A stretch of DNA of 24,159 bases from Deltaproteobacteria bacterium (GTDB taxonomy: Bacteria; Desulfobacterota; Syntrophobacteria; B119-G9). Of the stretch, positions 1,798-24,159 are shown piece by piece (positions within the stretch are counted from its first letter, which is position 1; each line of letters starts with the position of its first letter). The notes under the pieces were generated by a model. The model saw only the letters and a list, made by a program, of their open reading frames with translations, did not search any database and was not told where the DNA came from. Both the position numbers and the translations under genes were made by a program. The DNA lies in the NCBI GenBank assembly GCA_003646715.1, contig QMLL01000001.1, positions 1 to 24,159 of the forward strand. The letters run 5' to 3'.

Positions 1798-2487
1798 ATG
1801 TACAAAAAGTTACTGGTACTTGTTTTGAGTATTTTGATTTCGCTTGTATCAAGTGGCACTCTGCGGGCGGGATCTTCTCTGGTGATAGATTGCTTCATGC
1901 CATCTGATAATGGAAAGTTTCCGAAAGGTTGGGAATCAAAGCAGATGGGTGAAGCCAGAGGAATTTACAAAGTGGTTCTTGAGGAAGGCAACGCTATTTT
2001 GTGTGCTCATTGCACGAGTAAAGCTGTATCCATAGGTAAGAAAATTGAGATTGACTTGAGAAAGTACCCCATTCTCAAATGGAGATGGAAAGTGGTTAAG
2101 TCCCCGATAGGAGCGGACGAGCGGCATAAGAAAACTGGGGACAGTGCAGCTGCAATATATGTTGTTTTTCCCAATGGAATGAAAGTTTGGAGCCCCAAAG
2201 CCATCAAATATGTCTGGAGTTCCAGCTCTATGCCTCAAAATTCAACCACTGTGAGTCCTTACGCTAGCAATACCAAGATAGTTGTTCTGGAAAACAGGGA
2301 GACACCTCTCGGCGTTTGGATAGAAGAAGAGGTGAACGTCCTTAAGGACTATACCAGATTTTTCGGGGAGAAAATCGTAAGCGCCAAAATGATAGGTATA
2401 ATGTCGGATTCTGATAATACGAATTCCGAAGTTCATGCCTGTTATGACGATATTGTGCTGGAAAGTATTTCAGCGAAAGTACAATGA
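1798..2487 (+). CDS. DUF3047-family exported protein
   Basis: N-terminal signal peptide, YPILKWRWKV, DSAAAIYVVF, IKYVWSS and IGIMSDSDNT motifs typical of DUF3047. SD AAGGAGG upstream. Confidence 0.85.
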   Translation: MYKKLLVLVLSILISLVSSGTLRAGSSLVIDCFMPSDNGKFPKGWESKQMGEARGIYKVVLEEGNAILCAHCTSKAVSIGKKIEIDLRKYPILKWRWKVVKSPIGADERHKKTGDSAAAIYVVFPNGMKVWSPKAIKYVWSSSSMPQNSTTVSPYASNTKIVVLENRETPLGVWIEEEVNVLKDYTRFFGEKIVSAKMIGIMSDSDNTNSEVHACYDDIVLESISAKVQ

Positions 2488-2512
2488 ATAATTAAGCCAG
2501 AGTAAATTCTGT

Positions 2513-2541
2513 TTGACAATGGCATCATTTGCTGGTAGTAG
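2513..2541 (+). promoter_or_regulatory. Sigma70-type promoter for the trp leader/trpB2 transcript
   Basis: TTGACA (2513-2518), a 17-nt spacer, TG at 2533-2534 and TAGTAG (2536-2541), about 35 nt upstream of the leader ATG. Confidence 0.6.
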
Positions 2542-2574
2542 TAACCGTAATCGTGGAGATAGGCGGATAGAGAT

Positions 2575-2655
2575 ATGAATACCACCTGTAGAAACTGTGA
2601 TGCAATTTCCTGTTTGTTTTGGTGGTGGCAGGCTCACATGAGCCTGCCCTCATAG
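2575..2655 (+). CDS. trpL: Trp leader peptide (attenuator peptide) MNTTCRNCDAISCLFWWWQAHMSLPS, 26 aa; not in the ORF track
   Basis: ATG 2575, three tandem TGG codons (2620-2628), TAG 2653-2655 and SD-like AGGCGG 2561-2566. It sits directly upstream of a terminator and a tryptophan synthase beta gene. Confidence 0.85.
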   Translation: MNTTCRNCDAISCLFWWWQAHMSLPS

Positions 2656-2760
2656 GCTCTATCTCTCTAAAATAGAATAAGGAGAGCCATGGGGTAGGTA
2701 AAGTCCCATGGCTCAAACTTTTTTAGATGCCGTGGGGCTTTCCTCACGGCATTTTAATTT
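2620..2760 (+). promoter_or_regulatory. Ribosome-mediated transcription attenuator of trpB2
   Basis: Mutually exclusive helices read by hand: 2627-2635/2640-2648; 2655-2660/2683-2688; 2684-2693/2705-2714; antiterminator 2700-2712/2729-2741 (13 bp, 2 G-U); terminator 2727-2737/2742-2752 plus a T-rich tail. Confidence 0.8.
2727..2760 (+). terminator. Attenuator terminator hairpin upstream of trpB2
   Basis: ATGCCGTGGGG-CTTT-CCTCACGGCAT followed by TTTAATTT, ending 26 nt before the trpB2 ATG. Confidence 0.8.
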
Positions 2761-2786
2761 GTGAAATTAAAGAAGGGAGGATTGTT

Positions 2787-4148
2787 ATGACAGACGTAAA
2801 GGTATTCCTGGATGAGAGCGAACTGCCCAGACAATGGTACAACATACTGGCAGATTTGCCCACACCAATGAAACCGCCTCTACACCCAGCTACGGGTGAA
2901 CCTATTAACCCAGAAGATCTCGCTCCAGTGTTTCCCATGAATCTTATTGAGCAGGAAGTGGCTTCGGATAGATGGATAGATATTCCGGAACCGGTGCTTG
3001 AAAAATACGCTCTTTGGAGACCGACTCCTCTGTATCGTGCAAAGAACTTTGAGAAGTTTCTCGATGCACCAGTGAAAATCTACTACAAGAACGAGGGGGT
3101 TAGTCCTCCGGGATCGCACAAGCCCAACACAGCGGTAGCTCAGGCTTATTACAACAAAGTTTTCGGAATAAAGAGAATATCCACCGAAACAGGGGCAGGG
3201 CAGTGGGGTAGCGCGCTTAGCATGGCCTGCCAGATGTTCGGTCTTCAATGCAGGGTTTTTATGGTGAGGGTAAGTTATGATCAAAAACCTTACAGACGTT
3301 TGATGATGGCAACATGGGGTGCAGAATGTGTTCCCAGTCCGAGCAATATAACAGAGGTTGGAAAAAAGATTCTCGAAGAGCATCCGGATTCTCCAGGTAG
3401 TCTGGGAATTGCCATAAGCGAGGCCATAGAAGATGCGGTGGGCGATGAGAATGCTCGTTACTCTCTGGGTAGTGTTCTCAATCATGTGCTTCTACATCAG
3501 ACCATCATAGGCCTTGAAGCTCAAAAACAGCTCGAGAAAATAGGGGAATATCCCGATGTGGTTATGGGTTGTGCCGGTGGTGGTAGTAATTTCGCAGGAA
3601 TATGTTTACCCTTTGTAAGAGATAAAATCCATGGGAAAGAAGTCTCCATTGTTGCTGCAGAACCCACATCGTGTCCAACCATGACTCGAGGACCATATGC
3701 TTATGACTTTGGCGACCTGGCAAAAACAACTCCCTTGTTGCCCATGCACACTCTTGGGCATGACTTTGTACCCCCTCCCATTCACGCTGGAGGGCTAAGA
3801 TACCACGGTATGGCTCCCATTATCAGTCATTTGTTGAAAGAAAAGCTTATTGAAGCTAGAGGCTTTAACCAGATAGATACTTTTACCGCAGGTGTTAACT
3901 GGGCAAGAACGGAAGGATTTATACCGGCACCTGAGACAAACCACGTCATTGCCGCTGTGGTTCAGGAAGCTCAAAAAGCAAAAGAAGAAGGAAAAGAAAA
4001 AGTCATCCTTTTCAACTGGAGCGGGCATGGGATTATTGATCTGGCCGCTTATGATGCCTTTTTATCAGGAAAATTGACTCAATATGAATTGCCAGAAGAA
4101 GAAATCGAAAGGGCTTTAAAATCGCTGGAAGGTCTGCCGAAACCGTAG
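2787..4148 (+). CDS. trpB2: Tryptophan synthase beta chain, stand-alone type 2 (TrpB2), 453 aa
   Basis: PLP-lysine motif GSHKPNTA plus [34 protein letters not shown] and FNWSGHG. Its length and N-terminus (PRQWYNI) fit TrpB2. The start is reassigned to ATG 2787 behind SD GGGAGG (2775-2780). No trpA is adjacent. Confidence 0.95.
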
Positions 4149-4178
4149 CTTAACAGGTTTCGGGGAGGTATCTAAGAG

Positions 4179-4457
4179 ATGATTGTAGATCTGGAAATTA
4201 GATGCCCCAAACTGGGGCATCAGGTAAAGTTTGACTACTGCGAAAAGGAGCAGATAAGTCTCCCGTGCAAAAGAATAATCAAATGCTGGCAAATTTACTT
4301 CCCGGTGGAGATTTATCTCAAGAAAAAGTTAACAGAAGAAGAGTGGAATAGGTGTTTTAACGAAAAACCCAAGGAAAAAATACTAACTTTGCTGGAATTG
4401 ATTGACGCAGCAAAGAGGAGGAAGGAGAAAAAAGGTCAGAGTAAAGATAAACTATAG
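4179..4457 (+). CDS. Small hypothetical protein with four Cys (C-x11-C-x8-C-x5-C), possibly metal-binding
   Basis: SD GGGGAGG 4162-4168, motif RCPKLGH...YC...PC...CW, a basic C-terminus and tight operon spacing. Confidence 0.7.
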   Translation: MIVDLEIRCPKLGHQVKFDYCEKEQISLPCKRIIKCWQIYFPVEIYLKKKLTEEEWNRCFNEKPKEKILTLLELIDAAKRRKEKKGQSKDKL

Positions 4458-4482
4458 CATTTAATCAGAGGAGGAAAGGGGT

Positions 4483-5466
4483 ATGAGGAGGTCTGAAAAA
4501 TCAAACAACAGGCGTTGTCAGATTGTTATAGGTCTTGTGGTCTTCTTTTCTTTTTTATTAGCTCCAGCTTTATCTTTTGCTTATCATGAACCAGCCCTTA
4601 ATCTTGGCTTTACAACGTTTCTGGATGGGGGCCCGCCCGCAGGACCAGGATTTTATTTCTCTCAATATTTTCAATACTATAACTCCGATAAGTTAACCGA
4701 CAGCGATGGTGATGAATTGTTGCCGCCGTTCGCTGATGAGGACCTCGATGTATTTATTAGTCTTTCCCAGCTAATATATCATTCGAACCAGCCAATACTG
4801 TTTGGAGGGAAATGGGGCTTCGAGTTGATCATACCCTACGTGGGACTTGATCTGGACTATGAGGTAAACGGGCCATTTCCTGAAGATAATGGCTCAGGTT
4901 TCGGAGATATTCTTATTGGGCCTTTTATTCAGTGGGATCCGATAATGGGTAAAAAGGGGCCTATCTTCATGCATCGTTTTGAGATTTCTGTGATAGTACC
5001 AACTGGCAAATATGACGATGACAAGGAACTCAATCCAGGGAGCAACTTTTTTTCAATTAACCCTTACTGGTCTGCGACTCTTTTTATCACCCCGAGATGG
5101 ACTCTTTCCGGGAGATTTCATTATCTCTGGAATGCAAAAAACGATGATCCCAACAGGCAGTTTGCGGGAGCGGATGATACACAGGCGGGACAAGCATTTC
5201 ATGTGAATTTTACCTCTGCTTATGAGGTAGTACCAAATAGATTCAGAGTAGGTATAAATGGTTATTATTTGAAGCAGTTTACAGATACCGAGGTGGACGG
5301 TCACGATATTTCAGATAGCAAAGAGCAGGTTTTAGGACTCGGTCCTGGCTTTGTGATCCACTTCTCAAGAGATATACATTTGGTTTTCAACGCATATTTT
5401 GAAACTCAGGTCGAAAACCGACCAAAAGGAGAACGGTATAATCTTAGGTTTTTGTATCATTTCTAG
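4483..5466 (+). CDS. SphA/COG4313 (phenol MetA-pathway-like) outer-membrane beta-barrel channel
   Basis: Signal peptide, LNLGFTTFLDG-PP-GPGFY, GFGDILIGP-IQW, PTGKYD, GINGYYLKQ-TD, VLGLGPG and a terminal aromatic residue (LYHF). SD GAGGAGG upstream. Confidence 0.85.
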   Translation: MRRSEKSNNRRCQIVIGLVVFFSFLLAPALSFAYHEPALNLGFTTFLDGGPPAGPGFYFSQYFQYYNSDKLTDSDGDELLPPFADEDLDVFISLSQLIYHSNQPILFGGKWGFELIIPYVGLDLDYEVNGPFPEDNGSGFGDILIGPFIQWDPIMGKKGPIFMHRFEISVIVPTGKYDDDKELNPGSNFFSINPYWSATLFITPRWTLSGRFHYLWNAKNDDPNRQFAGADDTQAGQAFHVNFTSAYEVVPNRFRVGINGYYLKQFTDTEVDGHDISDSKEQVLGLGPGFVIHFSRDIHLVFNAYFETQVENRPKGERYNLRFLYHF

Positions 5467-8996: not shown

Positions 8997-9219
8997 GGAA
9001 AAATTCCTCTCTGTCGGAAAAGTTATTTTTTCAGCTAACATATTACCATAAGTGAAATAACACCTTCAAAAAAGAAATCGTACCATCAAAACTACGAAAA
9101 AGTTTTCGCACAGAGTATACCAATTATGATGTTTCCCTCTTGACAACCACGAAAAAATTGAATAGTCAAATAAGTAACGAAAAATTGAATATGTTGATTC
9201 AGGAGTTATGTAATAGGCT

Positions 9220-9248
9220 AAAGCCACCCAGACTCGGGTGGCTTTTTT
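9220..9248 (+). terminator. Strong intrinsic terminator-like hairpin in the pabA 5' leader
   Basis: AAAGCCACCC-AGACTC-GGGTGGCTTT followed by TTT, ending 15 nt before the pabA ATG. Confidence 0.75.
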
Positions 9249-9263
9249 GCTTAAGGGCTGAAA

Positions 9264-9896
9264 ATGAAAATTATCATAATTGATAACTATGATTCCTTTA
9301 CGTACAATCTTTTCCAGCTATTTACTGTCACGGGCGCGGATGTGAAGGTATACAGGAATGATTGTATATCTCTTGATATTCTTTCTCATGAGCCCCCTGA
9401 TGCAATCATAATATCTCCAGGTCCCAAGGATCCGTCAGATTCGGGAATTAGTAAGGATGTGGTCAGGTATTTTGGCAAAACTGTACCCGTCCTCGGCGTA
9501 TGCTTAGGGATGCAGGTAATAAACGAGGTATTTGGTGGGGAAACGATTCTTGCTCCAAGGCCTGTGCATGGAGAAAAAGACCGAATTTTTCATAGCGGAA
9601 AAGGACTTTTTCAATCGATTCCATCTCCTTTTTTCGCAGCCAGATATCACTCTCTGGTTGTAAGCATTGCGAGTGATGACTTGATGATAACTGCCAGAAA
9701 TAGCGAGAATATTATAATGGCGATTGAGCACCTGAAATATCCCATTGTTGGCGTTCAATTTCATCCCGAATCTTTTATGACAGAATATGGTGAGAAAATG
9801 GCAGTGAATTTTCTTAAACAGGTAAAATATCATGGAAGTTCTTCCCAGGATAAAAAACATAATTCAGCTGGAGCCTTCTTTTTGGGAGCGAGATGA
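9264..9896 (+). CDS. pabA: Aminodeoxychorismate/anthranilate synthase component II (type I glutamine amidotransferase)
   Basis: IDNYDSFTYN, ISPGPKDP, GVCLG (catalytic Cys), ARYHSL and QFHPES (His-x-Glu). It precedes pabB/pabC. Confidence 0.9.
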   Translation: MKIIIIDNYDSFTYNLFQLFTVTGADVKVYRNDCISLDILSHEPPDAIIISPGPKDPSDSGISKDVVRYFGKTVPVLGVCLGMQVINEVFGGETILAPRPVHGEKDRIFHSGKGLFQSIPSPFFAARYHSLVVSIASDDLMITARNSENIIMAIEHLKYPIVGVQFHPESFMTEYGEKMAVNFLKQVKYHGSSSQDKKHNSAGAFFLGAR

Positions 9897-14177: not shown

Positions 14178-14684
14178 ATGAAAGATTACTGGCAACCTTA
14201 TCTTGGCGGCGTAGCCCTCGGTTTTCTTCTTTTCTTTTCTTTTCTAATCTGCGGTAAGAGCGTAGGAGGCTCATCTTTTCTCACGCGACTGGCCGCGTAC
14301 TTTGTTCATATCGTTGCTCCATCTCATATAGAAAACTCAGCCTATTTTGGTCGATATTTTGCCGGCGCTAAAACACCTTTAAACTACTGGCTGGCCTATC
14401 TGGGTTATGGCACGTTTTTGGGAGGACTTGCATCTGCCTTTGTTCACGGCCGTTTAAAAATATCGATAGATAAAGGACCGAAGGTATCTCCCAAAGGCAG
14501 GCTGGCGCTGGCCATGTTTGGGGGTATCTTTGTCGGTTTCGCGTCAAGACTTGGGCTTGGTTGTACCAGCGGGCAGGGTTTAATTGGTGCCTCAATGCTG
14601 TCTGTTGGTTCATGGGTTTTCCTTTTTTCTGTGTTTTTAGGTGGATACGCAATTGCATATAGAGTCAGGGAAGGGTGGCTGTAA
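14178..14684 (+). CDS. YeeE/YedE-family sulfur-compound transporter, half-size subunit 1
   Basis: YW-PYLGG-ALG, four to five hydrophobic segments, GF-SRL-LGCTSGQ with the conserved Cys, and SD AAGGAG. Confidence 0.88.
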   Translation: MKDYWQPYLGGVALGFLLFFSFLICGKSVGGSSFLTRLAAYFVHIVAPSHIENSAYFGRYFAGAKTPLNYWLAYLGYGTFLGGLASAFVHGRLKISIDKGPKVSPKGRLALAMFGGIFVGFASRLGLGCTSGQGLIGASMLSVGSWVFLFSVFLGGYAIAYRVREGWL

Positions 14685-15292
14685 TGGGACCTGTAATAAA
14701 ATTAGCCGGGATGATAAATTCACCGGTAGACTTCTTTCTGGCTGTCTGTTTTGGTTTTTTCTTTGGATTTATCCTGGAAAGTTCGGGCCTTGCCAATTGC
14801 AGGAAGATAGCCGGAGTGTTTTACTTTTATGATGTTACCGTGGTTCAGGTAATGTTTACGGCAATTGTCACGGCAGTTCTTCTTCTCTATGGCACTTCAG
14901 CAATGGGTGTGCTGGATCTTTCACTTCTTTACGTACCCGATACATACATTTATTCTTATATACTTGCAGGCTTTATCCTCGGTGCAGGGATGGTTATGGG
15001 AGGCTACTGACCGGCCACATCTTTAACTGCCACGGCTGGCGGTCGGATCGACGGACTGTTCTTCGTAGTTGGAATAATGATCGGTTCCTGGCTTTTCTCA
15101 GAGCTTTTTACAATCATAAAACCAATCTATAAAGCGGGATCTCTGGGTAAATACTTTCTTTACCAATTATTCAATCTTCCGATCGGAGTTACGATTTTTA
15201 TTGTAACTCTGGCCGGACTCTGCTTTTTGTTCCTGTTTACTTTCCTTGAAACTCTTTTCGGAAAAAAGTTTGGAGGCAGCCGTGATTTATAA
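14684..15292 (+). CDS. YeeE/YedE-family transporter, half-size subunit 2, predicted selenoprotein (Sec109, TGA 15008-15010), 202 aa
   Basis: The ATG overlaps the upstream TAA (TAATG). ORFs 14675-15010 and 15077-15292 are in the same frame with only one TGA between them. The read-through sequence GMVMGGY-U-PATSL matches the family GxCPG(T/S) motif, and a SECIS-like hairpin follows. Confidence 0.85.
15008..15046 (+). promoter_or_regulatory. Bacterial SECIS element (YeeE-like gene)
   Basis: After the TGA: stem ACTGCCA (15026-15032)/TGGCGGT (15037-15043), loop CGGC with G at +24, and a possible lower helix CCGG/TCGG. Confidence 0.75.
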
Positions 15293-17780: not shown

Positions 17781-18209
17781 TTATGCCGCTTTTTTCTCTT
17801 TCAGTGGCAACGGCCCGAGTTCTTTAATTTTCTCCACAAACTCGGTAATACTTTCAGCAAATCTGGGAGCTTCAGCTGAAGAAATCCATCGTAGGTGAAG
17901 TCGTTCTGGTTCAATGCCTGTGAACTGCAAAAGCTCCTTTAAGAAAGCCACCCTTTTGGTTGTCATATAATTACCATACAGGTAATGGCAGTCTCCGATG
18001 TGTCACCCACCGATAAAAACGCCATCGACCCCTTTCTGAAACGCCTTTAGCACATAATGAGGGGAAACGCTTGCGGAGCAGGGAACTCTTACTGTTCTTA
18101 CATTGGGTGGGTACTGAAGACGGCTTACTCCGGCGAGATCAGCTGCAGAATAAGCACACCAGTTGCAGAGAAACGCGACGATCCGGGGTTCATAATTGTC
18201 TTTGACCAT
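17781..18209 (-). CDS. mvhD: MvhD/FlpD-family [2Fe-2S] hydrogenase iron-sulfur subunit, predicted selenoprotein (Sec69), 142 aa
   Basis: FLCNWCAYSAADLAG...RVPCS...GG-U-HIGDCHY..GN...ERL...WISSAE. ORFs 18003-18209 and 17781-17966 are in frame across one TGA (18003-18005) at the conserved GCH-GDCHY Cys position, and a SECIS-like hairpin follows. Confidence 0.92.
17970..18005 (-). promoter_or_regulatory. Bacterial SECIS element (mvhD)
   Basis: On the minus strand after the TGA: stem ATTACC (+17..+22)/GGTAAT (+28..+33) and loop TGTAT with G at +24. Confidence 0.7.
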
Positions 18210-18323
18210 ATGCTATATCTCCCACGATTGGTATAGTCTAGCGAAATGCCTTTGAGGACTCTGACAGAGGCGGGTAGCCAGAATCCCAATTCAATCGTTT
18301 ATTGCGTGCTGCGTGCATCTGTC

Positions 18324-18352
18324 TATTTACAGTCCTACGCCGTATTTGTCAA
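18324..18352 (-). promoter_or_regulatory. Possible sigma70 promoter for mvhD
   Basis: Minus strand TTGACA (18352-18347), 17-nt spacer, TAAATA. A second TTGACA lies at 18375-18370. Confidence 0.45.
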
Positions 18353-18605
18353 GACCGATTTTCAGGTTGTGTCAATAGCATTTATAAAAAGGCGAATTGC
18401 TGCAATGTTCGCATTCGGTATTCTGGCCCAAACAGTAGCGCGAGTGACACCCACGAAGGACTAAAAGCGGTACTTAGGGCAGTTTTGCTAGCATACCATG
18501 GCAGCGATGTCAGTTTCACTTGCAACAAAATGCACAGAAAAATTCTTGCACTATTCATAACCTGCGATTACTTTACCTTCTGTCAATCTTTCACGGAAAA
18601 ACTCC

Positions 18606-18632
18606 TTGACAACAAGTTTTGTATACTATAAA
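18606..18632 (+). promoter_or_regulatory. Sigma70-type promoter for the hdr-like operon
   Basis: Consensus TTGACA (18606-18611) and TATAAT (18627-18632) with a short 15-nt spacer. A second candidate TTGCAC-17-TACTTT lies at 18546-18574. Confidence 0.55.
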
Positions 18633-18765: not shown

Positions 18766-20526
18766 ATGTTTTTCAATGTCACACTTTACATTGTCTTAAC
18801 TATATTTGGTGTAGGGTTGATTTACAAGGTATCTACATGGTTTCGCTATAACATTGGAATTGTTGCAAGGGATATATCAACAGGTGAAAGGTTTGCTGCT
18901 GCCATTAAGGGCGTTTTTTCAACTTTTTTCAGCAGCAGAATCCTTACATTGCTGCGGGTATTCTTGGTGGATGTTCTTCTCCAGATGAGAACGTTGAAAG
19001 AAGATGGTCTGAGATGGATCATGCATATGCTCATCTACTGGGGCTTTATGCTTCTTCTACTTATGCATGCCCTTGACAAATTTATAACTTCTGTCCTCTT
19101 TCCTGACTACCAACCGACAATTAATCCTTTCCTCACTCTTCGAGATCTCTTTGGGGCAATGGTAATTGCAGGAATAGGTATTGCAATTTATAGACGCTTT
19201 ATCATGAAAGTCCCTCGCCTGAAAACTAATTCAATGGACTGCTACGCCATCGGCATAGTCGCCGTCATAATTATCTCAGGAATTTGCTTGCAAGCAACGA
19301 AAATTGTCTCTTACTCAAGCTACCAAAGTATGGTGGAAGAGTACACAACGATGCCTGAGGAAGACGAACTTAAGGCACTTGAGGCTTACTGGGTCCAGGA
19401 AATGGGTATGGTTTCTCCCACTACTAAGGGGCCGTTTAACAAGGAGCTTCTGGAAGCAGGTAAAGAGGCTTTCGAGATGAGCTGTGCCGAGTGCCATGCG
19501 CGAGAGCAATCCGCTTTCTTGAGCTATGGTCTTTCTCGGATAATTAAACCCTTGGCACTTGGTTTGGATAGTGCCAAGATTCCTATTCTACTCTGGTATA
19601 TACATTTTTTGGCGTGTTTTATTGGTTTGGCTTACCTCCCTTTCAGCAAGATGTTCCATATTATCGTGAGCCCACTGAGTATTTTGGCAAACGCGGTCAT
19701 GGATGATGAAACATCTGATCAGGCAAACATTGCAACCAAGCAAATCATGGATCTAGATGCCTGTACGCATTGTGGAACATGTACCACAAGATGTTCGGTT
19801 GCGATAGCTTTTGAAGAATTTCAGAATATAAACATTCTTCCTTCAGAGAAACTTATTGCAATAAAATCACTTGCTCGGGGGAAGGAGCTGTCGCCCGATG
19901 AGCTGAAGCTTCTCCAAGAAGGAGCCTATATTTGTACCAATTGCTATCGTTGTACTGTTGCGTGTCCCGTGGGTATTAACCTGCAAAGTATATGGTTCAG
20001 CGTGAGAGAGGGCCTTCTCGAGAAGGGTTATCCCGAGCTCTCGGTGCTTTCACAACTTTCCTTTTACCGAGGTTTAATGCAGAGAAAGATTGTTGCTGAT
20101 GAGTACCGGGAACCTCTACAAGAGGCAAGAGAGGCGATCTCTGAGAAGTGCGAATTAATGAAGGCTAAAGAGAAGCCTATCAATGTGACGACAGCAAGCA
20201 AAAAGCTAAGATCGGAATTGAGTCTTTCCAGCCAGGCAAGTACCTTTTCGGTCTGCTTTGCCTGTGAGACATGTACAACAGTATGTCCTGTGGTAGCAAG
20301 CTACGAGAATCCGCAAGAAGCCCTCGGCATGCTCCCCCATCAAATCATGAATGCCTGTGCTCTGGGGGTGCGGGATCTGGCTTTCGGGTCGAACATGCTG
20401 TGGGATTGTGTAACATGCTATCAATGCCAAGAGCAATGTCCCCAAGGGGTAGCAGTTACGGATGTACTCTATGAACTAAAAAATTTGGCTATCAAGAGTG
20501 TAAAACTAACATTGGCAACAAAGTAA
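18766..20526 (+). CDS. Membrane redox fusion: NarI/HmeC/DsrM-like di-heme b domain with inserted CxxCH heme c motif, fused to two HdrC-like di-[4Fe-4S] domains
   Basis: Five hydrophobic helices with His pairs (H-x13-H and H-x17-H), CAECH at 19483-19497, and four ferredoxin motifs: CTHCGTCTTRC, CTNCYRCTVACP, CFACETCTTVCP and CVTCYQCQEQCP. Confidence 0.85.
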   Translation: MFFNVTLYIVLTIFGVGLIYKVSTWFRYNIGIVARDISTGERFAAAIKGVFSTFFSSRILTLLRVFLVDVLLQMRTLKEDGLRWIMHMLIYWGFMLLLLMHALDKFITSVLFPDYQPTINPFLTLRDLFGAMVIAGIGIAIYRRFIMKVPRLKTNSMDCYAIGIVAVIIISGICLQATKIVSYSSYQSMVEEYTTMPEEDELKALEAYWVQEMGMVSPTTKGPFNKELLEAGKEAFEMSCAECHAREQSAFLSYGLSRIIKPLALGLDSAKIPILLWYIHFLACFIGLAYLPFSKMFHIIVSPLSILANAVMDDETSDQANIATKQIMDLDACTHCGTCTTRCSVAIAFEEFQNINILPSEKLIAIKSLARGKELSPDELKLLQEGAYICTNCYRCTVACPVGINLQSIWFSVREGLLEKGYPELSVLSQLSFYRGLMQRKIVADEYREPLQEAREAISEKCELMKAKEKPINVTTASKKLRSELSLSSQASTFSVCFACETCTTVCPVVASYENPQEALGMLPHQIMNACALGVRDLAFGSNMLWDCVTCYQCQEQCPQGVAVTDVLYELKNLAIKSVKLTLATK

Positions 20527-20540
20527 ATGGGAAGAGAGCT

Positions 20541-21461
20541 ATGAAATTTGCGCTTTTTTTGGGATGCAATATTCCGGCCCGGGTAAAACAATACGAATCC
20601 TCAGCGCGAGCTGTCTTGGAAAACCTTGGGGTTGAAATCTTCGACATAAGGGAGTTTAATTGCTGCGGATATCCCTTGAGGAACCTTGATTTCAAGGCTT
20701 TTGTCCTTGCCTCAGCCAAGAACCTTGCACTTGCAGCACGGGAGAACCTTAATCTATTGACACTTTGCAAGTGTTGTTATGGAAGCTTGAAGAAAGTGGA
20801 TCACTTAATGAGGGAAAACCAGTCTTTACGAGATGAAATAAACGCTATCCTTAAAAAAGAAGACCTGAAATATGATGGTGGGCTGCAGGTAAAACACTTT
20901 CTCACTGTCCTTTTCCACGATGTTGGAATTGGTTCGATCGCGAAACGAGTGACGAAACGTTTTGACGGCCTTAACATTGCTACCCACTATGGATGCCATG
21001 CCCTCCGACCTAGTAAAATAGTTGAATTCGATGATCCCGTGAAACCCTCTTTATTTGAGAAACTCGTCGAATTGACCGGGGCTAAAAGTATAGATTGGAA
21101 GGCCAAGCTGGATTGCTGCGGTGCTCCGCTACTTGGTGTAAACGATGAGCTTTCAATGAGACTCATGCAAAAGAAGCTGAAAGATGGGAAAGAATCTGGT
21201 GCAGATTATTTATGCGTAGCCTGTCCGTATTGCCAGCTCCAATTTGATTCCGTACAGCGAATGATGTTGGAAAAGCAACATACCAACACCCAGCTTCCAT
21301 CAATCCTATATCCTCAACTTCTTGGTCTCACAATGGGTCTTGATAGTACGTCCCTTGGATTAGACGAAAATCAGCTACCGATCAATGGGATCATGAAGTA
21401 TTTCCCTGAACCCGAGGCAGAAGAAAAGGAAGAAGAAAATGAGGAAAAAGAGGACAAATAG
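20541..21461 (+). CDS. hdrB: Heterodisulfide reductase subunit B family (two CCG domains)
   Basis: FLGC, NCCG, CKCC, YGCH, DCCG and ACPYCQ-QFD, followed by an acidic tail. Confidence 0.93.
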   Translation: MKFALFLGCNIPARVKQYESSARAVLENLGVEIFDIREFNCCGYPLRNLDFKAFVLASAKNLALAARENLNLLTLCKCCYGSLKKVDHLMRENQSLRDEINAILKKEDLKYDGGLQVKHFLTVLFHDVGIGSIAKRVTKRFDGLNIATHYGCHALRPSKIVEFDDPVKPSLFEKLVELTGAKSIDWKAKLDCCGAPLLGVNDELSMRLMQKKLKDGKESGADYLCVACPYCQLQFDSVQRMMLEKQHTNTQLPSILYPQLLGLTMGLDSTSLGLDENQLPINGIMKYFPEPEAEEKEEENEEKEDK

Positions 21462-21592: not shown

Positions 21593-24159
21593 ATGACCCA
21601 GAGTAAGATTGGATCAGTAATGGTTGTAGGTGGTGGAATTGCAGGGATGCAAGCCTCTTTGGATCTCGCCGATTCAGGATTTTACGTCTACTTGGTGGAA
21701 AGATCCCCATCTATAGGGGGACTCATGTCTCAGCTGGACAAGACCTTCCCCACCAATGACTGTGCCATGTGAATTATCTCTCCCAAACTGGTCGAGGTCG
21801 GCCGGCATCTCAACATTGAGCTTCTCACCCTGTCGGAAGTCAAGGACGTGTCAGGAGAGGAAGGGAATTTTGAAGTCACCCTTGTCCAGCATCCGCGTTA
21901 TGTGGATGTAGACAAGTGTATTGCTTGCGGGACATGTGCTGAGAAGTGCCCGCGTAAAGTTGATAATGAATATGATGCAGGGCTTAGTAAGAGGAAGGCA
22001 ATATATGTTAAGTATCCGCAAGCTGTCCCACTCAAATATGCCATCGATGCTGATCACTGCATCTACTTTCAAAAGAAAAAGTGTAAGGCATGTGAGAAAT
22101 TCTGCCCTACAGGAGCCATATTGTTTGACGACAAGCCGAAGGAGTTAAACATAAAGGTCGGGTCGATAATTATGGCTGCCGGAGTAGACGTTTTTAACCC
22201 GGTGATCCGCGATATTTACGGCTATCGCAACTCACCCAATGTTGTTACCAGTCTTGAATTTGAAAGGATACTTTCTGCTACAGGGCCTTACGGAGGGCAC
22301 CTTGTAAGACCATCTGACAAGAAAGAACCACAGAAGATAGCATGGATCCAATGTGTGGGATCCAGAGATGTTCACGAGGGGGCCAAATCGTATTGCTCGG
22401 CAGTCTGCTGTACTTATGCCATAAAAGAGGCCATTGTGGCCAAGGAGCATAGCAAGAACGGTCTTGATGCGGCTATTTATTACATTGACCTCCGGACCCA
22501 TGGAAAGGATTTCGAAAGATACTATTACAGGGCGAGAGATGAAGCAGGAGTCCGTTTTATAAAATCGAGGATCTCGAACATAACACCTGTAAGGGATACA
22601 GGGAATCTCATCATCAGGCATGTTGATGAATCTGGACGAAGAGTTGAAGAAGAATTTGATATGGTCGTTTTGTCTGTAGGGCTCTGCGTCAGTGATAAAA
22701 CCCTTGCGTTGGCAGAGAAACTTGGCGTGCAACTCGATCCGCACCATTTTGTAGCCACCAACAGTTTCGAACCTGTTAAAACCTCCAGACCAGGAATCTT
22801 CACGTGCGGTGCCCTTGAAAGTCCCAAAGATATTCCTCAGTCGGTGATTGAGTCCAGCGCCTGTGCAGCTGTAGTAGAAAGCACCCTGGCTGAGGTCCGT
22901 GGGACAATGACGAGAACAAAGGAAATTCCTCAAGAGATCGATGTGAGCGGGCAACCTCCTCGAATAGGCGTATTTGTGTGTCACTGCGGGACAAACATTG
23001 CGGGTATAGTAAATATTGACGAGGTAGTTGAATACGCCAAAAGCTTACCAGGGGTTGTCTTTGTAGAGAGCAATCTCTTTTCTTGTTCCCAGGACACTCA
23101 AGAGAAAATGACAAAAGTTATTGAAGAACAAAATCTCAACAGGGTAGTGGTGGCAGCATGCACACCAAGGACTCACGAACCATTGTTTCAGGAAACACTG
23201 GTAAATGCGGGAATCAACAAGTATCTATTCGAAATGGTGAATATTCGAAACCAATGTTCTTGGGTGCACAGCGATGATCCCGAAGCAGCTACGGAGAAAG
23301 CAAAGGATCTGTTAAGGATGGCTGTGGCAAAGGTTGGTCTGTTAGAACCGTTGGCGCAACCGGTAATAGAAATAACTCAATCTGCCTTGGTTATAGGTGG
23401 GGGTATCGCGGGAATGGCTGCCGCGAAAAATCTTGCAGAGCAAGGGTACCACGTGTACCTGATTGAAAAGAGCGATACTTTGGGGGGACAGGCTCGCAAG
23501 TTGCACGAGACATGGCAGGGAGAAAGTGTCCGTCAAAATCTTACAAACCTTATCGGTGAAATACAAGAATCGGGGAATATAGAGGTCTTTCTTAAAACCG
23601 AATTGACCCATGTTGAGGGATTTGTTGGGAATTTCAAGTCCACCATACGTTGCAATGATGAAGAGAAGGTGCTTGAGCACGGGGTAGCCATTATTGCTAC
23701 GGGAGCATCTGAACTCAAACCGGATGGCTATCTCTATGGAGAGGACCCGAGGGTTTTAACGGGCTTAGAATTGGACGAGAGACTCATTAAAAATGATGCC
23801 TCTCTAAGGGATGTAAAGTCAGCTGTTTTTGTCCAATGCGTGGGCTCAAGAATACCCGAGAGGCCATATTGTTCTAAGGTTTGTTGCACCCATTCGATCA
23901 AGAATGCTCTCGAATTGAAAAAAATCAATCCTGAGATTGAAGTCTTTATTGTATATAGGGACATAAGAACTTACGGTCTTCGAGAAGAGCTGTATCGAGA
24001 AGCAAGAGAGAAAGGAATCATCTTCGTTCGATATGATTTTGATAAAGGAATAGCGGTTAGGAGAGCTGGAGATGAGCTTCAAATAGCTTTCACCGGGTAT
24101 ATCCTTAAAAGAGAAATTACCATTCAAGCTGATATGGTTATCCTCGCAAGTGCTATCGT
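21593..24159 (+). CDS. hdrA: Large HdrA-family flavoprotein with duplicated FAD modules, predicted selenoprotein (Sec60, TGA 21770-21772); 3'-truncated by the window; absent from the ORF track
   Basis: ATG 21593, [27 protein letters not shown], two ferredoxin motifs, QCVGSRD...YCS-VCC, an internal [15 protein letters not shown] domain, a second GGGIAGM (from 23396) and a second QCVGSR...YCSKVCC. By hand translation the frame is open to the window end apart from the single TGA. Confidence 0.93.
21770..21805 (+). promoter_or_regulatory. Bacterial SECIS element (hdrA)
   Basis: After the TGA: stem CTGGTCG (21788-21794)/CGGCCGG (21799-21805) and loop AGGT with G at +24. Confidence 0.78.

Follow-up and report, generated by a model that had tools for sequence, protein, structure and literature searches.

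The closest described relatives of the gene discussed here are EMO and EtfD, the membrane-bound ETF:(methyl)menaquinone oxidoreductases. In these proteins, and in the relative named 'HdrF', a NarI-like five-helix haem b domain is followed by an HdrC-like 2x[4Fe-4S] domain that leads towards HdrB-type CCG clusters. The Syntrophus EMO (SaEMO) and the M. smegmatis EtfD (MsEtfD) have this wiring from transmembrane part to HdrC-like part to HdrB-like part, with haem ligands at equivalent positions (bioRxiv 10.64898/2026.08.18.745454), and HdrF of Desulfobacterium autotrophicum has been named among the EMO/EtfD-type relatives (PMC2702500). A gene of partly similar design lies on a contig of a Deltaproteobacteria bacterium (QMLL01000001.1, assembly GCA_003646715.1), and the whole contig, 24,159 nucleotides long, was analyzed and is called the window here. 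The gene is a single open reading frame (ORF; 18766-20526, plus strand, 586 amino acids) in which a cytochrome b/c membrane domain is followed by an EMO-type 2x[4Fe-4S] domain and then by an HdrC domain, and it is referred to below as the fusion gene. From its sequence and a structure model, its product is predicted to be the membrane subunit of an Hdr-type complex, and its cofactors are very probably two haems b, an outward-facing haem c and four iron-sulfur (Fe-S) clusters.

EMO is the top structural match to the fusion protein, and the haem ligands that have equivalents in both are His87 and a His-x17-His pair on helix 5. EMO, however, is a single polypeptide with its CCG domains fused on, with three His ligands, no CxxCH and EtfAB as its partner, whereas the fusion protein has four His ligands, an insertion of ~53 residues bearing a CxxCH and a Met, a second (HdrC) Fe-S domain, a separate HdrB, and HdrA/MvhD instead of etfAB. 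The combination that defines EMO/EtfD/HdrF (membrane domain, one di-cluster domain and two CCG domains, with etfAB or glpAB) is not the one found in the fusion, and the window holds no etf or glp gene. The same genome also encodes an EMO/HdrF-like paralogue, on the minus strand of contig C393 (locus L004), which is at least 651 amino acids long and runs off the contig. Its parts are a membrane domain, a single di-cluster domain and a pair of CCG domains, and it has three His ligands. The equivalent of His101, the Met and the CxxCH are all missing from this paralogue and its loop between helices 4 and 5 is shorter by the same ~53 residues, so the loop predicted to bind haem c appears to be an insertion specific to the fusion family.

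Other membrane-bound systems share parts of this design. HdrDE of Methanosarcina and the DsrMK(JOP)/HmeCD of sulfate reducers also lead from a di-haem b subunit to cytoplasmic Fe-S/CCG disulfide reduction (of CoM-S-S-CoB or a DsrC trisulfide), and DsrJ puts periplasmic c haems on such a wire. Unlike the fusion, they are built from separate subunits, have c haems only on the three-haem DsrJ, and have no HdrA flavoprotein. TmcABCD and HmcABCDEF of Desulfovibrio, which are believed to pass electrons from periplasmic cytochrome c3 on to DsrC, run from periplasmic haem c through cytochrome b to cytoplasmic CCG domains, the route proposed below for the fusion. Their multihaem c subunits are polypeptides of their own, however, and they have no HdrA or HdrC, whereas the fusion would hold a single c haem within the cytochrome b. 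QmoABC combines HdrA-like flavoproteins with an HdrC-like Fe-S part fused to an HdrE-like di-haem b domain, and QmoC aligns with the HdrC part of the fusion (E 4e-19). An earlier note on this DNA, made from the sequence without database searches, had stated that QmoC has the reverse domain order, and this holds: the fusion begins with its membrane domain and reaches only 69.3 bits on NF038018 (cut-off 300), whereas QmoC has its Fe-S part first and its membrane part last, no haem c and no HdrB partner, and serves adenosine 5'-phosphosulfate reductase.

The soluble HdrABC-MvhAGD, Fdh-HdrABC and FlxABCD-HdrABC complexes have in common with this locus an HdrB with ten Cys, the HdrC domain, an HdrA with selenocysteine (Sec) and MvhD, and loci related to this one add FdhAB or Flx-like genes and dsrC, as those complexes do. 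The difference is that an extra di-cluster domain here ties HdrC covalently to a membrane domain with three predicted haems, and that HdrA is a tandem protein. Biochemical evidence places the HdrCBA-MvhD-MetVF complex of Sporomusa ovata at the membrane, through an unidentified link (PMC9430772), and this is a precedent for a membrane-linked HdrCBA-MvhD. HotSeep-1 has a protein with c haems and a CCG domain adjoining HdrA (PMC10553843), which is a different protein from the fusion. Ties to the 'HdrABC/HdrL' of Syntrophobacter fumaroxidans proteomics (PMC5947623) and to HdrA2BC in the membrane fraction of Desulfococcus multivorans (PMC5109826) were also considered and given up, since an HdrC of this type could not be established in either.

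Among EMO/EtfD/HdrF, HdrDE, DsrMK(JOP), Tmc/Hmc, QmoABC and the S. ovata Hdr, none has a haem c built into its cytochrome b, and none unites an EMO-type unit, an HdrC domain, a separate HdrB and HdrA. The earlier note knew of no characterized example, and searches of Pfam, NCBIfam, the PDB and the literature brought up none with the architecture of the fusion. When the fusion was scanned against the NCBIfam equivalogs and Pfam, only generic Fer4 models came out above threshold.

The AlphaFold2 model of the 586-residue protein, for which a 73-sequence alignment was the input, has a mean predicted local distance difference test score (pLDDT) of 92.3 and a predicted template modelling score of 0.88, with no segment below a pLDDT of 50. 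Residues 1-436 of the model resemble EtfD of M. smegmatis (PDB 9OJN; Z 25.0, 335 residues aligned), and residues 470-580 resemble HdrC in the solved methanogen complexes (Z 12.7-14.8, root-mean-square deviation (rmsd) 2.0-2.8); NarI matches with Z 11.9 over 175 residues. The linker between the first Fe-S unit and the HdrC domain (residues ~440-490) is modelled with a pLDDT of 63-88. Sequence and model together thus describe a predicted EMO-type membrane/Fe-S unit, a flexible linker and an HdrC domain, which is a better wording than the tandem duplication of HdrC-like domains that the earlier note had seen. The two Fe-S domains are indeed homologous to each other (25% identity, E 3e-10), but they belong to separate lineages and only the second is HdrC.

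The fusion has four CxxCxxCxxxC motifs, starting at C333, C390, C497 and C548. The first 2x[4Fe-4S] domain (residues 325-420; 19738-20025, plus strand) has Cys333/336/339/343 and Cys390/393/396/400, matches Fer4_8 (E 4e-12), and falls within the part of the model that aligns with EtfD. It resembles the EtfD/EMO/SdhB type, and the SdhB, DsrK and EtfD types come nearest in sequence searches. The second (residues 485-586; 20218-20523, plus strand) has Cys497/500/503/507 and Cys548/551/554/558 and is homologous to solved HdrC, with a profile E of 1.1e-19 and, against 7bkb_C, Z 14.8 and an rmsd of 2.0 over 102 residues. The eight Cys of the first domain are invariant in the 73-sequence alignment, and the eight of the second are kept in at least 90% of the sequences. 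TIGR03290 matches the second domain with E 1.4e-21 and 76.9 bits against a cut-off of 160, over positions 2-83 of the 144 in the profile, and the domain lacks HdrC's C-terminal extension. By the TIGR03290 and NF041779 tests it is predicted to be an HdrC-type domain, not an HdrC equivalog.

The membrane domain (residues 1-311; 18766-19698, plus strand) is assigned to the NarI/EMO type on conservation, on the fold match to NarI and EtfD, and on the match of the family profile to NarI helix V (E 1.8e-7); PF02665 gives 22.3 bits on residues 1-320, against a curated cut-off of 22.9. Hydropathy and the AlphaFold2 model agree on five transmembrane helices, at residues 2-27, 81-101, 122-147, 156-181 and 272-311, so the NarI-like five-helix domain with two His pairs that the earlier note had described in this ORF is borne out, also by the alignment. 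A sixth helix at residues 50-77 was considered and rejected, as the model places two short connecting helices there, like EMO.

The C-terminus of NarI is cytoplasmic. For the fusion, a five-helix topology with the N-terminus outside and the C-terminus inside fits the hydropathy, the modelled helices and the positive-inside pattern. Over the family, the net charge is +4.1 for loop 1-2 and +5.0 for loop 3-4, which are predicted to be cytoplasmic, and -1.4 for loop 2-3 and -7.0 for loop 4-5, which are predicted to be periplasmic. The Fe-S domains that follow helix 5 come without an export signal and must contact the cytoplasmic HdrB and HdrA, and loop 4-5 should therefore lie outside. This argument holds whatever the number of helices upstream, and the side of loop 4-5 would be the same even with a sixth helix at residues 50-77. 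The loop with the CxxCH is thus predicted to be on the periplasmic side, as the earlier note had claimed, on the basis of the charge bias, the NarI homology and the cytoplasmic Fe-S domains.

Helix 2 bears His87 (19024-19026) and His101 (19066-19068), and helix 5 bears His280 (19603-19605) and His298 (19657-19659), all on the plus strand and picked out as haem b ligands from the alignment. His101, His280 and His298 are invariant, and His87 is present in 72 of the 73 sequences. The spacing of 18 residues between His280 and His298 is the same in NarI and SaEMO. By analogy with SaEMO, MsEtfD and NarI, His87 and His298 would bind a haem b on the cytoplasmic side, and His101 and His280 one on the periplasmic side.

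Loop 4-5 (residues 182-271; 19309-19578, plus strand) does contain the CxxCH-bearing insertion of the earlier note, and it is larger than had been claimed, ~90 residues rather than ~70, with a range of 87-103 across the family. It is ordered in the model (pLDDT 84-98). Residues 232-244 of the loop read GKEAFEMSCAECH, in which CAECH is residues 240-244 (19483-19497). The motif is invariant throughout the family: all 121 close homologues have it, as do all 63 distant full-length representatives (31-57% identity), which an exhaustive search of the 50%-identity clusters supplied. Such conservation is far above chance expectation. Cys240, Cys243, His244, Met189 (19330-19332) and Trp209 (19390-19392) are all invariant in the 73-sequence alignment. 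Met189 lies on a short helix right after helix 4. It is a plausible candidate for the distal ligand of haem c, since it is invariant, belongs to the same loop as the CxxCH and is the sole invariant potential haem ligand on the periplasmic side besides the residues assigned to the b haems; His244/Met189 ligation would follow. The distal ligand, which the earlier note had considered not identifiable from sequence, therefore now has a candidate.

The gene for the putative partner HdrB lies directly downstream (20541-21461, plus strand) and encodes 306 amino acids with two CCG domains (PF02754, E 1.7e-22). An alignment with methanogen HdrB spans the whole protein (E 2.4e-59), in which none of the ten Cys that ligate the two non-cubane [4Fe-4S] clusters is missing. 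The protein scores 248.9 on TIGR03288, below the equivalog cut-off of 345, and its substrate therefore need not be CoM-S-S-CoB.

hdrA follows hdrB after 131 nucleotides. The earlier note was right that hdrB and then hdrA are found downstream of the fusion gene; hdrA starts at 21593 and not at the GTG at 21848. A standard ORF call begins at 21848 and so shortens this selenoprotein gene, which has an in-frame TGA (21770-21772) at the usual selenocysteine position. The window contains the 5' part of hdrA (21593-24159, plus strand). The last 123 nucleotides of the window are 100% identical to the end of contig C151, which holds the remainder (6272-5687 of locus L096, minus strand). From its sequence, HdrA is predicted to be a tandem double unit of ~1008 amino acids, split over two contigs; a 1009-residue orthologue in locus L013 has the flavin adenine dinucleotide and CxGSR...CC motifs twice each. 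Upstream of the hdr genes and divergent from them is mvhD, of the FlpD family (17781-18209, minus strand), which matches PF02662 (E 3e-56) when its in-frame TGA at 18003-18005 is read as U. This TGA lies inside a GGUHxGDCH motif, and the gene is overlooked by standard ORF calling.

The fusion family is large and widespread, and no prior characterization of it was found. There are thousands of full-length homologues of 580-600 amino acids, and more than 560 species genomes of the reference collection encode a relative. The best 80 relatives come almost all from metagenome-assembled genomes (MAGs) of Desulfobacterota (Syntrophobacterales, Desulfobacterales and Desulfatiglandales), together with Desulfatitalea alkaliphila. 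Desulfosalsimonas propionicica and Desulfosediminicola flagellatus have it too, in copies whose annotation goes no further than 'HdrC' or '4Fe-4S dicluster protein'. Of 400 other genomes sampled evenly from the phylum, 64 contain the membrane/haem c domain at a threshold of E <= 1e-30, and 37 of 255 genera have the family when the genome of the window is counted.

Gene order around the fusion gene is conserved. In 65 of 67 related loci the next gene downstream is hdrB, and hdrA is found on the same strand within 6.5 kb in 33 of 48 loci from many families. Among the nearest relatives the next genes are MvhD, FdhB, FdhA and a formate transporter; other loci go on with MvhD(Sec) and two Fe-S proteins to a canonical dsrC with a GCV end, an order that resembles an Flx-Hdr string. 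In locus L032 the fusion gene opens such a Flx-Hdr-like string, and a canonical dsrC with the GCV end (19260-19577) closes it. Locus L097, on a 4.29-Mb contig of GCA_040772925.1, has a DsrC-family gene, the fusion gene and hdrB in that order, without hdrA; the DsrC-family gene, immediately upstream of the fusion gene (9199-9858), encodes a 219-residue tandem protein without the terminal Cys. Loci L036 and L024 have the fusion gene and hdrB alone. In three metagenome sequences of 711-716 amino acids (P0172, P0178 and P0221), the membrane/CxxCH/first Fe-S unit is fused straight to two CCG domains, which by sequence would be an EMO/HdrD architecture with a predicted haem c.

In the solved HdrABC structures, HdrC is flanked by the HdrA flavin on one side and by the active site and clusters of HdrB on the other, and this placement would make the fusion a three-way junction. 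Loop 4-5 would bind one covalent haem c, with His244 and Met189 as ligands, stacked over the outer haem b. The wire would then run from haem c to the outer haem b, the inner haem b, the two clusters of the first Fe-S domain and the HdrC clusters. One end of the junction would be the membrane and periplasm, with c-type cytochromes and/or menaquinone; another would be HdrB with its disulfide-reducing non-cubane clusters, and the third, on the ferredoxin side, the bifurcating flavin of HdrA-MvhD. Electrons from periplasmic carriers or menaquinol could reach HdrB and HdrA, or flow in reverse, which would couple both disulfide reduction and the ferredoxin-linked bifurcation or confurcation of HdrA to the membrane. 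It seems reasonably probable that the fusion is such a junction, exchanging electrons with periplasmic c-type cytochromes and/or menaquinone in either direction and tying the chemistry of HdrB and HdrA to the membrane. A DsrC-type protein is most likely the substrate of HdrB in this dsrA-bearing host, since Dsr-related genes accompany the fusion gene in some of the family and dsrA is present in this genome, on contig C11. A search with the L097 DsrC-family protein as query gave no DsrC-like gene in the window or in the 69%-complete genome.

Several observations weigh against the junction. No electron-input (donor) module adjoins the hdr genes here, and it is a kinase and a σ54 activator that follow hdrA. 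hdrA is not nearby in 15 of the 48 loci. dsrA is present in ~41 of the 64 carrier genomes and undetected in ~23 (approximate figures, from a comparison of two lists by hand), so that about one third of the carriers have no detectable dsrA and DsrC cannot be the general substrate. The other points concern the predicted haem c. Loop 4-5 is an incomplete class I cytochrome c domain, and the Pfam cytochrome c models give only short, sub-threshold matches at the motif (E 0.01-0.025, ~20 residues covered). Genes for haem c maturation were only partly found: there is one CcsB-type gene, which adjoins hemA and could be HemX-like, and a search for ResB and CcmE in the 69%-complete MAG came up empty, which is not evidence of absence. 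These last points would fit a CxxCH that is free of haem and forms a structural disulfide or a metal site, leaving the protein a plain di-haem b anchor of the DsrM/HdrE type. Such a role seems quite improbable, because the two Cys, the His and the Met are all invariant down to 31% identity and a disulfide alone would not need the His. Like class I cytochromes c, the protein has a helix before the motif and a conserved Gly eight residues ahead of the first Cys. The loop is predicted to be periplasmic, and the genome has at least eight ORFs for multihaem c-type cytochromes, so the host must possess haem c maturation.

The loci without hdrA bear on another explanation, in which the fusion and HdrB form a self-contained membrane disulfide reductase like DsrMK or HdrDE, and hdrA and mvhD encode a separate soluble enzyme. 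The two-gene units of L036 and L024, the similar unit with a DsrC-family gene in L097, and the relatives with fused CCG domains, an architecture that does not need HdrA, all agree with this, as does the gap between hdrB and hdrA in the window. Yet a same-strand hdrA follows in about two thirds of the loci, across many families, and the C-terminal domain is a genuine HdrC, the subunit that bridges HdrA and HdrB in every solved HdrABC. EMO manages with one di-cluster domain, and the second, HdrC-type domain is best explained by docking of HdrA. A self-contained reductase is accordingly given little credence here.

A further alternative accepts the haem c but makes it internal to a quinone site, or a third haem that tunes the potential, comparable to haem ci of b6f or the twin haem of SaEMO, rather than a place where periplasmic cytochromes dock; the complex would then be a menaquinol-linked enzyme of the HdrDE/DsrMK type with HdrA added. 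The third haem of SaEMO is at the same outer position, beside a modelled methylmenaquinone pocket (bioRxiv 10.64898/2026.08.18.745454). In the fusion family, the residues conserved on the periplasmic side, Tyr115, Thr118, Arg126 (invariant in the alignment), Ser182 and Trp209, could line a quinone pocket. Loop 4-5 is also too short for a free-standing cytochrome domain, and no periplasmic cytochrome gene is adjacent in the window. On the other hand, a CxxCH with an invariant Met is typical of c haems in electron transfer, and the acidic loop would suit a basic docking partner, although this is only suggestive. Tmc, Hmc and DsrMKJOP of related organisms take electrons in via periplasmic c haems. 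Overall, a haem c that is internal in this way appears unlikely.

The junction could also be read in a more specific way, as a transmembrane bifurcating or confurcating Hdr. The high-potential branch of HdrA would lead via HdrC, the di-cluster domain and the two b haems to the periplasm-facing c haem, and the carriers there would drive, or be driven by, ferredoxin-level chemistry. This is a tentative and rather doubtful possibility. If true, the complex would link periplasmic or extracellular carriers directly and give syntrophs and sulfate reducers a hard-wired means of reverse electron transport.

How electrons move between the periplasm or quinone pool and the cytoplasmic bifurcating enzymes of sulfate reducers and syntrophs is an open question, to which Qmo, DsrMKJOP, Tmc and EMO each answer a part. 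The fusion family would unite a periplasmic c haem, a di-haem b wire, the disulfide-reducing site of HdrB and the HdrA flavin in one assembly, and a cytochrome b of the NarI type with a haem c inside it would add a new arrangement of cofactors to the twin haem that was recently described for EMO. The interest of the family lies mainly in its spread and testability. It is common, occurring in about one sixth of the sampled genomes of the phylum, and it pairs with formate dehydrogenase, Flx-like NADH modules or DsrC. Several carriers are available in culture, which makes haem content, partners and the direction of electron flow directly testable.

The genes downstream of hdrA on contig C151 (L096) are both on the minus strand and encode a PAS-GAF histidine kinase (3685-5391), directly downstream, and a σ54-dependent response regulator (2296-3654). 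This pair may regulate hdrA. A search for σ54 promoters upstream of the fusion gene gave nothing above chance, and neither did a scan for σ70 promoters and terminators. A 109-residue ORF upstream of the fusion gene (18302-18631), for which Pfam gave no match, is unlikely to be a real gene.

In two related loci, the fusion gene is apparently broken and hdrB does not follow it: L006 (5819-7375) and L084 (10001-11725) have two ORFs or no clean ORF in its place. These copies may be pseudogenes or assembly errors. Elsewhere in the window, two adjoining ORFs with a slight overlap (14178-14684 and 14675-15010, plus strand) both match the YeeE/YedE family of sulfur transport (PF04143), the first corresponding to the C-terminal part of the model and the second to the N-terminal part.

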